The position numbers and the translations under genes were made by a program. From a virus: 64,000 nucleotides of DNA. The notes under the pieces are model-generated. The model worked only from the letters and a program-made list of their open reading frames with translations. It did not search any database and was not told the DNA's origin. Of this stretch, positions 60,559-64,000 are shown piece by piece (within the stretch, counting starts at the first letter, position 1; each line of letters starts with the position of its first letter). The stretch is taken from the IMG/VR virus record IMGVR_UViG_3300029985_000036, positions 1 to 64,000 of that record. One strand, 5' to 3'.

Positions 60559-61047
60559 GTGCCTGTAACCGTAACAAAAATCTTATCCTCTACAGAGTTT
60601 TTAGCTCTTAATAATGACGCAATGGCAAAAGGATATTATAATACAGATCCTCGAATCTTTACGCCGGGTATGGCCTGGGAAGAAGATTGGATCTATGATC
60701 CTTTTGGTGTTCGTAAGGTAGCTGGTGGACACGTTATGATAAAATCTCCAACTGCCCCCAACAAAGAGTATCTATCCATCCACTATTGGAAGGATTGGGC
60801 TCACATTAGACCACCCATCACAGTCGTGTGTCCTAACGGTGCCCACTGGGGTTGGGATCACAAATCTAGTAATGGTGATGGCTGGATTGTTACCAGTACA
60901 AACTCAGTGTTTTCATGTCACCCTTCCATTGTGGTTCCAGGATATCATGGATGGTTTAAGAATGGAACCTTTTCATCTGACCTAGAAGGTCGGGGTCCTA
61001 CCGGTATTTCTAAACCTCTTCCAGAAGGATTGTTACCATGCAAGTAG
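60559..61047 (+). CDS. Hypothetical protein with a DUF6527-like metal-binding C-terminus
   Basis: CP...W...W....PSI....HGW..NG pattern. GGAG RBS. Overlaps the RNAP start. Confidence 0.6.
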   Translation: MPVTVTKILSSTEFLALNNDAMAKGYYNTDPRIFTPGMAWEEDWIYDPFGVRKVAGGHVMIKSPTAPNKEYLSIHYWKDWAHIRPPITVVCPNGAHWGWDHKSSNGDGWIVTSTNSVFSCHPSIVVPGYHGWFKNGTFSSDLEGRGPTGISKPLPEGLLPCK

Positions 61048-62522
61048 ACGCTCCATTTAATGTAAAGCTTTTGGATGTTAATGCCTACATTCGATCTTGG
61101 TTTGTACATCCTGTTGTCGATCTTTCTTTTTATGCCCCCTCCTCAGGGAATGCCTTCTCTCAAACAGGATTATTCTCAGAAACCATCTTTGGCACTCTGG
61201 GTTCAACAGAACGCATGGTAACCTTTGGTTATATTGCACTGAATACATCCGTTCTTCAGCCACTGATCTACAAGAATCTCATTAAACTTGCAGCGCTTTA
61301 TGAAGAGATTATAACGGGTAATGCATATGCCCGATTCAATGATGAGACACATGATTTTGTGCGATGTCCAGATCCTGAAAAGTTTAATGATGCAGGTACT
61401 GGATATACCTTCTTTATGAATCGGTTTAATGACATTCAATTTGCACGAAATGATTCAAGAATCAGATCTGATCGAATTGATATCATTGAGAAATTCCGAG
61501 ACATTCTATTTTGTGATAAATTCTTGGTACTCCCTGCAGGTCTTCGTGATCTTGCAGAAGATCAAGGTGCTGTTACAACAGATGATATCAACAAACTTTA
61601 TCAAACATTGTTGTCCTATAGTTTTGCTCTTCCTCCTCATTCCAATAGTACAATCTATGATGGAGTACGAACTTCTATTCAAAAGAAAGTCGTAGAAATA
61701 TATGATTATATTGAAAATATTTTAACAGGTAAAAAGGGCTTTATTCAGGGGGTTTGGGGACACCGACATGTAGCTCTTGGTACCCGGAATGTGATCACTG
61801 CAGCTTCATATGCGACCATGACGCCCAATGACCCACAGACCCTTCAACCAGATGAAACCAAGCTCGGATTGTTTCAGACAGCAAAGGCTTTACAACCCAT
61901 TGTTGTTCATCATATCAGAACCAGTTTCTTAGCACCAGTATTTGGAGAAGGCTCCAATCTGGTTCCTCTTACAGATCCAAAAACATATGAACTTGCCTAT
62001 CGATCTCTCAGTAATAAAGAACTATCAAGATTTGATAATCCAGAGGCCATTGAAGATTGGATCTCTCGATTTCAAAATGTTGATATCAGAAATCAACCCG
62101 TCACCATTTATGATGTCGAAGGTAAACCTTTTTATCTTTTAATGGTTTATGATGAGGGTGACGAGATCGCTCTCTTTCGAAGTCTGAATGAATTTCAGAA
62201 TGTATTTCTTCGTGAAATTGATCATTCTAAAATTCGTCCCTTAACTTGGGCTGAGTTGATCTACATGGCTGCTTATAATGCATCTAATGGAAAACATGTA
62301 TTCATCACACGGTATCCCGTTATTCAAGATGAATCTTGTTATCCGACGAAGATTCATCTGAGTTCTACTCAACCGGCTCGTGTTGTCAGGTTGATGAACA
62401 CAGTTATTGATCAGGTTGTTTATACCTATCCTGAATATCCAATTCTGGGAAGACCCTTCCTCGATAGTATCCAATTGGCGACATCTCGGCTAAGTGGTCT
62501 GGATGCAGACTACGATGGAGAT
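61038..62522 (+). CDS. Virion RNA polymerase beta' subunit, N-terminal/catalytic part (phiKZ gp180-like), exon 1
   Basis: GLFSETIFG, VLPAGLRD, GKKGFIQ, RNVIT, TRYP and catalytic DADYDGD. The ORF stops 11 codons later, at 62558. Confidence 0.9.
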
Positions 62523-64000
62523 TCAACTACTTATTGTTTTCTGACAGAAAACCCATAGCAATTCCTACATAGTCACTTGCTTATGGACTTTTTAATTCTG
62601 ACACTATATTATAGAATTTAAAAGAGTAACTATAATGTCAGAAGAAGAGTTTGTAAAAATTCCTCATTTTTCTAGATACTCCATTTCAAAAAATGGAACT
62701 GTCATAGAAGATGTAAAACACCAAATTGTTGTACCGACATACAACAGATATGGACTTCCAATCGTTGCCCTAAAAAATGAACGCAATAATTTGTGCAATA
62801 TGTCTATTGCCAAACTTGTATTACTTACTTACAACCCACTTGTAAATAATAATTATCCTTATGTAACTATTTCATATGTAGATAAAAATATAAAAAATAT
62901 TGTCTTAGACAATCTTGAATGGAATTTTGTCATATATAAACCTCAATTTATTCCAGGTATTAATATACGAAATGATGAATTTGTAACTGTTTATGGAACA
63001 ACAGATTACATGATTAATGCATTTGGTATTCTACTTAATAAAAAAGGTAAACAACTAACGGGACACACTGATAGCAGTGGGTATATTAAAACAGAAATTG
63101 ATGGTGCCGGAACTACAAGTATCCATCGATTAGTTGCGCTTACATTTTTAGAACATCCGATTGATACAACTGATCTGATTATAAATCACAAAGATGGAAA
63201 CACCAGTAATAACTATTATAAAAATCTTGAATGGTGTAGTTATACCAATAACATTGATCATGCGTATGATAACAAAATGAGAAGTCAAAATATTCCGATT
63301 TTAGCTATGGATATTGAAACTCGTGAGATTGTGAGTCATTATAGTTTACGTGATTTTTGTTATAATGTTGAGATTCCCCACATTGCGATTTGGTGGAGGT
63401 TGCGAAATAATAGAAATATAACTCCGTATCATGGATTTTATATCAAATATACTACAGATTTAAGGCCGTGGCCTAAAAAAGATGGTGTTGTCAATGTGTA
63501 TGAAAAGAAAAAAATATTAATTAAAAATATGTCAAGTGGAGATGTAACTATTTTCACAAGCTATAATGAAATAACACGACAATATAAATTTCAAAAGAAT
63601 TCTATTTTATATCAACTGAATAAACCAGAGCCGGAACCATATCACGGACTTCTTATTAAATTTGAAAATGATAAACCTTGGCCACTATACAGCGAACAAG
63701 ATCTTCATAAATATTCACTTAAAAAAATGCCACAGAGTAAGCCCATTTCAGTCTATAATACACAAACTCAAGAAACAAAAACCTATGAGGGAATTCGAGA
63801 GTTTTGTCGAGACATTAACTATAAAGCTGAGATGTTTATACGAGAAAAAGTCAAATCAAACAAACCCTTTAAACACTATGAAATAAATTATCTGTAACAA
63901 TAGCGATTATGTCGGTAATCCTTATTGTAAATTGTTAATATGTTCCTGTCAGAAACAATAGTATACAGTCCATCTTGATGGTAACATCAAGAATGAATTC
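62523..64000 (+). mobile_element. Probable group I intron (5' part; runs off the window)
   Basis: Starts after the U of the last catalytic Asp codon. 62528-62547 pairs with 63946-63963, followed by a GUAA-tetraloop hairpin at 63973-63992. Contains an HNH gene. The catalytic core is not visible. Confidence 0.7.
62635..63897 (+). CDS. HNH homing endonuclease (NUMOD4/HNH_3 type)
   Basis: IHRLVALTF...INHKDGNTSNN..KNLEW, a degenerate N-terminal copy, three C-terminal repeats (PYHGF, PYHGL, PFKHY). Strongly AT-rich. Confidence 0.92.
   Translation: MSEEEFVKIPHFSRYSISKNGTVIEDVKHQIVVPTYNRYGLPIVALKNERNNLCNMSIAKLVLLTYNPLVNNNYPYVTISYVDKNIKNIVLDNLEWNFVIYKPQFIPGINIRNDEFVTVYGTTDYMINAFGILLNKKGKQLTGHTDSSGYIKTEIDGAGTTSIHRLVALTFLEHPIDTTDLIINHKDGNTSNNYYKNLEWCSYTNNIDHAYDNKMRSQNIPILAMDIETREIVSHYSLRDFCYNVEIPHIAIWWRLRNNRNITPYHGFYIKYTTDLRPWPKKDGVVNVYEKKKILIKNMSSGDVTIFTSYNEITRQYKFQKNSILYQLNKPEPEPYHGLLIKFENDKPWPLYSEQDLHKYSLKKMPQSKPISVYNTQTQETKTYEGIREFCRDINYKAEMFIREKVKSNKPFKHYEINYL

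Follow-up and report, generated by a model that had tools for sequence, protein, structure and literature searches.

The window analyzed here is a 64,000-nt stretch of viral DNA, bases 1 to 64,000 of the IMG/VR virus record IMGVR_UViG_3300029985_000036, the full record being 86,569 nt long with an estimated completeness of ≈38%. Toward its end lies the first exon of a virion RNA polymerase (vRNAP) beta′-N gene that breaks off at the codons of the catalytic Asp triad, followed by an open reading frame (ORF) for an HNH homing endonuclease and by a group I intron core and a second exon that lie largely or wholly beyond the window (Table 1). Sequence past the window end was read from slice L001, which corresponds to record positions 61500-65500 (window coordinate = L001 + 61499).

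Table 1 Features of the interrupted beta′-N locus. Positions marked “record” are those of the full viral record.
Feature	Position	Strand	Details
Exon 1, virion RNA polymerase beta′-N gene	61038..62522	+	495 codons, ends DADYDGD
Last three exon nucleotides, GAU	62520..62522	+	pair with guide GUC 63968-63970; U-G wobble at the splice site
Group I intron	62523-64349 (record); 62523..64000 in window	+	1827 nt; begins after U62522, ends at G64349
P1 extension (clamp), 5′ strand	62528..62563	+	18 + 3 + 8 bp
HNH homing-endonuclease ORF, free-standing	62635..63897	+	420 aa; frame differs from exon 1
Intact HNH motif	63184-63264 (~aa 184-210)	+	H185, N197 and H209 aligned
P1 extension (clamp), 3′ strand	63930..63963	+	partner of 62528..62563
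Rfam RF00028 match	63953-64276 (record); 63953..64000 in window	+	covers P2, P3-P8, P7 and P9
Internal guide sequence GUC, 3′ strand of P1	63968..63970	+	from sequence; alignment A3 columns 42-44
P2 hairpin	63973..63992	+	8 bp, GUAA loop; Rfam model aligns it as P2
P7 strands	64153-64158 and 64250-64256 (record)	+	beyond the window
3′ peripheral hairpins	64277-64349 (record)	+	beyond the window
Exon 2	64350-64508 (record)	+	beyond the window; 52 codons (TVSANAML...) and stop codon
Terminator-like hairpin	64525-64557 (record)		3′ of exon 2; one found versus a shuffle average of 1.1

The exon 1 product matches PHROG 2986 (“RNA polymerase beta subunit”) with an E value of 1.2e-135 and, as a tblastn query, retrieves 313 phage records, all at less than 60% identity, the best being Xoo-sp14 (37.9%) and PhiPA3 gene 212 (34.2%). 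The counterparts of the host gene are PhiPA3 gene 212 and phiKZ gp180, not PhiPA3 gene 211. Alignment to PhiPA3 gp212 and Xoo-sp14_173 reveals that homology ends exactly at ...DADYDGD (62522, GAT GGA GAT), the very position at which the original prediction, made from the letters of the window, had seen RNA polymerase (RNAP) similarity stop. Read unspliced, the ORF extends from 61038 to 62558, adding 11 codons that are unrelated to the homologs before a stop codon at 62556-62558. The codons that follow the intron read TVSANAMLSDEANAEV... and align with “ADFDGD-TVSFNAVYSKEA” of PhiPA3 gp212; this continuation, TVSAN, is in frame and has no start codon of its own, and the ligated exons encode a 547-aa beta′-N subunit that reads DYDGD/TVSAN as in uninterrupted homologs (a slash marks an insertion point here and below). 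Since the intervening sequence starts after a U, ends in G (...CUGGACAAGGG) and is followed by resumed exon 2 homology, the intron is 62523-64349, and its insertion point immediately follows the codon for the final Asp of DYDGD, the Mg-binding motif. An exon 2 in frame after a terminal G had been proposed as a check in the original prediction and lies just there.

The stretch between the HNH ORF and exon 2 is G+C-rich and ORF-free, and a 506-nt slice of this region matches RF00028 (Intron_gpI; curated cut-off of 50 bits) with 63.9 bits and an E value of 5.5e-16 (L001 2454-2777). A group I core with P3-P9 is therefore present downstream of 64000, where the original prediction had pointed; an Rfam search of the whole record returns the same match again and no second intron. 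To this core we aligned seven further introns (alignment A3, n = 8), namely those of L078 (Ga0302326_10007757) and L079 (Ga0209698_10021347), both unannotated metagenomic contigs, and those of Xanthomonas phages RTH11 and LucasX, Pseudomonas phage OMKO1, phiKZ gp55, and PS119XW gp055. RNAalifold recovers P2, P3, P4, P5, P5a/b, P6, a P7.2-like hairpin, P8, P9, and P9.1 from this alignment; with the P7 pseudoknot added to the fold, 92.3% of 599 cells are paired, compared with 37-42% when partners are slid. Compensatory changes on both sides occur in 53 of 76 core pairs, three of them in the P7 pseudoknot, and none of 500 shuffles reaches any of five covariation measures. P7 itself is CGAUCA/UGAUC(U)G in the present intron and in L078, whereas L079 has CGGUCA/UGACC(U)G. 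The remaining five introns share CGACUA/UAGUC(U)G except PS119XW, which has C instead of the last G. Subgroup IA introns are recognized by extra hairpins, P7.1/P7.2, between P7 and P3′. The ≈47-nt insert at this place holds two hairpins, the second of which covaries in six of six pairs. We provisionally call the intron IA-like.

One RNA contig joins the exons. In RNA run X15, a peat metatranscriptome, a 151-nt contig of depth 4 and free of mismatches connects L001 1023 to 2851 (62522 to 64350), skips exactly 1827 nt with ends TC..GG, and leaves no positional ambiguity; it supplies the exon-exon junction that the original prediction had proposed to seek by RT-PCR. Reads at the locus were compared in three RNA runs and in one DNA run (X13) of the 14 locus-rich DNA runs. 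These 14 contain at least half of the sampled words of the locus, 13 of them being labeled peat and one marine. Six metatranscriptomes (X15-X20) contain small word shares; neither these shares nor the gaps in RNA coverage along the locus were used as evidence. DNA run X13, the sole DNA run compared, contains no exon-exon joint, and one of its contigs crosses the border between intron and exon 2.

We now consider P1. The guide triplet GUC sits three bases 5′ of P2, and as proposed at the outset its pairing with the exon GAT leaves the U-G wobble at the splice site; in silico, the guide covaries with the exon among relatives. The exon/guide pairs vary with insertion site, being GAU/GUC in RTH11, LucasX, OMKO1, and phiKZ gp180, AAU/GUU in phiKZ gp55, GGU/GCC in Yaphecito, and GGAGAU/GUCUCC in PS119XW. 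Seven of the eight aligned introns carry the guide triplet at the aligned position just 5′ of P2, the other being PS119XW, which is without P2. The P2 hairpin, TCTTGATG-GTAA-CATCAAGA, which had been described as P2-like, shows compensatory changes in eight of eight pairs among the seven relatives that possess it. With the 5′ splice site on one side of the ORF and the guide on the other, the ORF is inside the P1 loop, a placement that is well supported. The loop is closed by a clamp. The complementarity between 62528-62547 and 63946-63963, already noted with its two bulges, is real (18 bp, single-U bulges at 62532 and 62540) and extends further than had been claimed, 62550-62552 pairing with 63942-63944 and 62556-62563 with 63930-63937; the HNH ORF stops 33 nt 5′ of the 3′ strand. 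The duplex is worth −27.2 kcal/mol, which none of 1000 dinucleotide shuffles reaches (mean, −11.2; standard deviation, 2.7; best, −21.6), and it is present in the minimum-energy fold of the whole intron. Analogous clamps across the ORF or its remnant, each compared with 500 shuffles, are matched by one shuffle for phiKZ gp180/gp179, six for OMKO1, and 13 for phiKZ gp55/56.

The introns of L078 and L079 place this loop in context. Both occupy the same site (DxDGD/T) in host genes 69% identical in protein sequence to the present one, with the same GUC guide and a homologous 3′ end, but they lack an endonuclease gene and are only 384 and 379 nt long. L078 also has P2, differing from that of the present intron by a compensatory pair. 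P1 of L078 is a short hairpin (GAU/G...C GUC), and that of L079 is lengthened by 8 bp and bears a small cap. Given these short P1 elements at the same place, what the present intron has added there is the clamp and the ORF. A literature search in a limited collection found neither a P1-loop ORF nor an intron hot spot at DFDGD described for jumbo phages; in the Bacillus nrdF intron, the ORF is in P6.1 (PMC2248736).

The ORF in the loop encodes a protein that matches phrog_59 (E = 4.7e-34) and whose HNH core aligns over 80 residues with PDB 1u3e, “HNH homing endonuclease” (E = 6.5e-7). Pfam HNH_3 (cut-off of 24.8 bits) scores 25.3 bits on a 115-aa piece (aa 106-220), and the C-terminal part resembles a DNA-binding region and aligns with phiKZ gp56. 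Longer similarities connect the protein to phiKZ gp179 (aa 6-342, 24% identity, E = 3e-22), phiKZ gp56 (26% identity, E = 6e-26), and 2050HW_00101 (26%). Residues 1-105 (62635-62949) form a degenerate HNH-like module in which the His of the NH(K)DGN motif is replaced (SY/IY). Its relationship to the HNH module is found by hhalign (97.9% probability, E = 3.3e-13) and is seen only by such profile comparison, as direct BLASTP of aa 1-105 against aa 106-220 is not significant (E = 4.7). The first 110 residues of phiKZ gp179 are likewise a degenerate HNH copy without the catalytic His. The enzyme thus carries a pseudo-HNH and an HNH module in tandem, a conserved arrangement that may matter for DNA binding or strand choice. 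In the whole-intron minimum-energy fold, the HNH start codon (62635) lies within a local hairpin, 62596-62643, and the corresponding codon of the phiKZ gp180/gp179 intron is base-paired to the 3′ end of its ORF; pairing of this kind may limit translation of the endonuclease. An ORF-specific promoter was considered and dropped (the upstream motif does not recur, with four matches versus 1.21 expected and three of 100 shuffles reaching four), and sigma-70-like sites are at chance level (11 versus 10.7).

Collectively, we assign a probability of roughly 90% to the reading that this is a mobile 1827-nt IA-like group I intron, with an HNH gene in its P1 loop, in the vRNAP beta′-N gene of a phiKZ-like jumbo phage from peat. 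In the mechanism that we propose, folding of the primary transcript would bring the exon GAU into pairing with GUC, the guide just 5′ of P2, and a stem of ≈29 bp would close the P1 loop and draw the 5′ splice site to a ribozyme core 1.4 kb away. Guanosine would then attack after U62522, the terminal G64349 would dock, and joining of 62522 to 64350 would yield the 547-aa subunit; the intron probably self-splices in this guanosine-initiated manner with no protein required. The HNH enzyme would for its part drive homing by nicking or cutting the conserved site in related phages whose alleles have no intron. Intron-less alleles are found in relatives L075-L077, with 77-78% protein identity; around the junction, L076 and L077 agree with the present sequence at 26 of 30 upstream and 23 of 30 downstream positions. 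That the enzyme is directed against competing phages is conjecture.

Several points weigh against this reading. Rfam cmscan in “evalue” mode found no intron in a 2-kb (62000-64000) or a 4-kb slice; since an intron of 63.9 bits was missed there, negative Rfam scans of kb-sized slices are not to be trusted for ORF-bearing introns. The splice joint rests on one low-depth contig from one RNA run, RNA libraries can contain DNA, and the joint was checked for in one of the 14 locus-rich DNA runs. The exon-guide pairing is only 3 nt long, and comparison by eye of the first exon 2 bases with the bases 5′ of GUC gives no convincing P10. The clamp analog in Serratia phage 2050HW is no better than chance (230 of 500 shuffles). 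Furthermore, when 56-nt windows were slid along the sequence, one of 380 (start 64185, P8 region) pairs with the first 53 nt of the intron at −33.0 kcal/mol, more strongly than the clamp does. In this alternative the 5′ clamp strand (62526-62569) joins record 64185-64240, a P8 extension that the ORF-less relatives are without; the pairing could toggle the RNA between splicing and expression of the ORF, or it could be fortuitous. Finally, HNH_3 reaches 24.1 bits on the full HNH protein, just below its cut-off, and NUMOD1 reaches 17.7-19.8 bits, under its cut-off of 22.8.

Of the alternatives, the one that survives best accepts the intron but takes the HNH protein for an inactive passenger, inherited vertically with neither homing nor a role in competition. 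The profile scores at or under the cut-offs and the first 105 residues, an HNH-like module devoid of the catalytic His, are in line with this, as are ORF-less L078 and L079 and the filler at the ORF position in OMKO1, which show that ORF loss is frequent. We nevertheless regard a passenger as rather unlikely. No stop interrupts the 420 codons of the ORF, its second module retains H...N...H in alignment with PDB 1u3e, and part of it (L001 1943-2194) is represented by an RNA contig. Conservation of the tandem with phiKZ gp179, at 24% identity, also speaks for selection.

A second alternative concerns the junction contig, which would derive from an intron-less allele of the same strain, as DNA or as transcript, the intron-bearing allele perhaps being poorly spliced. 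As an RNA library may carry DNA and a single contig of depth 4 has the joint, an intron-less DNA allele could explain it. We consider this very improbable: the joint falls exactly at the U/...G/ boundaries predicted beforehand from group I rules, all 151 nt agree with the present strain, whereas 11 of the 60 positions flanking the site are different in the closest intron-less alleles known, and DNA run X13 crosses the border of intron and exon 2 yet yields no joint. A third places the ORF outside of P1, in a long P1-P2 linker, with a local guide (e.g., GUC at 62572-62574) and an incidental 62528/63946 pairing. That triplet does exist, and in either model the exon pairing is of 3 bp; however, the local hairpin has no supporting stem, the guide just 5′ of P2 is that of seven of eight aligned introns and exactly the one that ORF-less L078 and L079 use, and the clamp, far beyond its shuffles, is part of the minimum-energy fold, so that the chance we give to a local guide is slighter still. 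Least credible of all is the absence of any intron, with a gene split by a free-standing endonuclease and a truncated 506-aa subunit assembling post-translationally with a small peptide: gene callers do give a 506-aa protein (P0001), and a 46-codon ATG ORF overlaps exon 2, but the covarying group I core, the terminal G, the in-frame TVSAN lacking a start codon, and the spliced RNA contig all speak against it.

The closest known system to the intron described here is that of phiKZ gp180/gp179. It interrupts the same beta′-N gene and has the same layout of exon 1, HNH ORF, core, and short exon 2, and it likewise has a GUC guide just before P2 and a long-range clamp across the ORF; behind gp180 (490 aa, ending ...GAD) come gp179, a core recognized by Rfam, and an exon 2 with FDGDTVSFNAVY at its start. 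The endonucleases are homologous, degenerate N-terminal module included. The present intron is therefore a further example of a known arrangement. It differs from phiKZ in its insertion point, 12 nt further downstream (AD/FDGD in phiKZ versus DYDGD/T here), and the site directly after the Asp triad is its distinguishing trait. In addition, the phiKZ ORF runs through the guide into P2, whereas the present ORF stops before the clamp. The host genes are ≈34% identical in protein sequence, a figure that comes from PhiPA3 gp212 and other Pseudomonas phiKZ-like phages (33.5-34.2%), phiKZ itself not being among the matches listed. OMKO1 harbors an ORF-less derivative of the phiKZ gp180/gp179 intron, with ≈150 nt of AT-rich filler in the place of gp179. 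For phiKZ, PMC11512511, citing Ceyssens 2014 and Mesyanzhinov 2002, lists introns in gp55 and gp180 together with the endonucleases gp56, gp72, and gp179; the portion of 10.1101/2023.10.13.562163 at hand contains nothing on phiKZ RNAP introns.

The original prediction had named PhiPA3 gp210 as the precedent. This stands insofar as gp210 is the HNH endonuclease of a group I intron in a chimallivirus virion RNAP gene, inserted at conserved Asp codons, with the ORF between the 5′ splice site and the core. It does not stand as the nearest relative, which is phiKZ gp180/gp179, as the gp210 intron is in the beta gene (gp211/209, homolog of phiKZ gp178) and PhiPA3 beta′-N gp212 is uninterrupted. gp210 nicks the intron-less gp178 of phiKZ and gives PhiPA3 a competitive advantage, as shown by Birkholz et al. 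2024 (PMC11620839). The introns of phiKZ gp55/gp56 and PS119XW gp055 have a related core (≈74% identity over P3-P6) but reside in a paralog, the beta′-N gene of the non-virion polymerase. phiKZ gp56 is an HNH protein at the same 5′ position as the present ORF, the gp55 site being N/ADFDGD; the PS119XW intron is at the equivalent site, DFDGD/Q, and has neither ORF nor P2. By eye, the phiKZ gp55 and gp180 introns share a near-identical 3′ part of ≈85 nt (J8/7, P9, and beyond; L004 3720-3825 and L081 4850-4930, minus strand), which, given their different genes and sites, suggests intron-intron exchange within one genome. More distant is PDB 1u3e, which we take to be I-HmuI, from the SPO1 DNA-polymerase intron. 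Like the present enzyme, 1u3e is intron-encoded in a phage and has an alignable HNH core; unlike it, 1u3e has 174 aa and a single module, and it differs in host gene, in intron, and in where the ORF lies within the intron. PMC12908238 describes the SPO1 endonuclease as a nickase.

To place the site among homologs, we judged the best 120 protein clusters matching exon 1 (P0001-P0120) by their protein ends. Seventy-four are uninterrupted. Nineteen, the present phage included, end fewer than 45 aa after DxDGD, that is, at the present site; 26 end just before xDGD (after GLxxD), mostly the phiKZ gp180 site; and one carries a ≈200-aa in-frame insert after DFDGN. Stops at the catalytic motif thus occur in 45 of the 120 best clusters, which would fit widespread unannotated introns at two main sites, each truncation being taken for an intron by extension from the readable cases: the present phage, L078, and L079 (DxDGD/), RTH11 and LucasX (AD/FDGD), OMKO1, and phiKZ gp180. 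Group I introns in RNAP beta′-N genes are seen in RTH11 (L005 3450-3854), LucasX (L061 2449-2853), OMKO1 (L063 2316-2796), PS119XW (L064 2479-2840), and Yaphecito (L068 from 2467); the exons of all five are annotated as separate “hypothetical” or “RNA polymerase” coding sequences, with no intron feature among the annotations returned. The in-frame insert belongs to a homolog of 43% identity (IMGVR_UViG_3300045988_163688, P0084; L072, and L074 5974-6560), in which it starts CLIGST after DFDGN and the polymerase resumes ...SSNGVLSKQANQ. Pfam finds no family in this 251-aa insert of L072; our guess is that it might be an intein at the same codon boundary as the present intron.

At least four insertion positions are used (N/A, AD/F, DFDG/D, and DFDGD/), which suggests that related introns shift between adjacent sites of the motif. 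It is possible, if doubtful, that the 18 nt encoding NADFDGD are a multi-site landing strip on which one IA-like intron family hops by retuning its 3-nt guide. The present intron would then be one of the phiKZ gp180/gp179 type displaced by a 12-nt jump from one ...GAU/ site to another, and the pseudo-HNH plus HNH enzyme would serve to attack L075-L077, peat phages that co-occur with it and have no intron.

The original observation is real and its interpretation sound; the case is ordinary in kind and well documented; the known workings of group I introns and HNH homing endonucleases are unchanged by it. What it offers is a fully delimited mobile ribozyme located at the catalytic Asp triad of a multisubunit RNA polymerase, the exact junction being present in environmental RNA, in a gene of a type that gene callers and database entries list as truncated proteins of ≈495 aa. 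As natural alleles with intron and ORF, with the intron minus its ORF, and without the intron are available at one site, there is material for tests of homing and interference like those made for PhiPA3 gp210.

A search with an alignment (A2) as query retrieves six related loci in viral contigs and six in metagenome contigs. The exon 1 protein alone finds no relative among the viral contigs, and a DNA pattern from the conserved core finds 0 stretches there. The HNH query yields 54 distant loci, with 24-56% identity over the best-matching segment, which were not used further. Finally, the sequence 3′ of exon 2 (L001 3068-3993, record 64567-65492) holds minus-strand ORFs of 89 aa and 210 aa, the latter containing HEIGH. 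The beta gene directly follows beta′-N in phiKZ, PhiPA3, Xoo-sp14, and OMKO1 and comes after one extra ORF in RTH11 and LucasX; the gene order of the present phage is therefore different.

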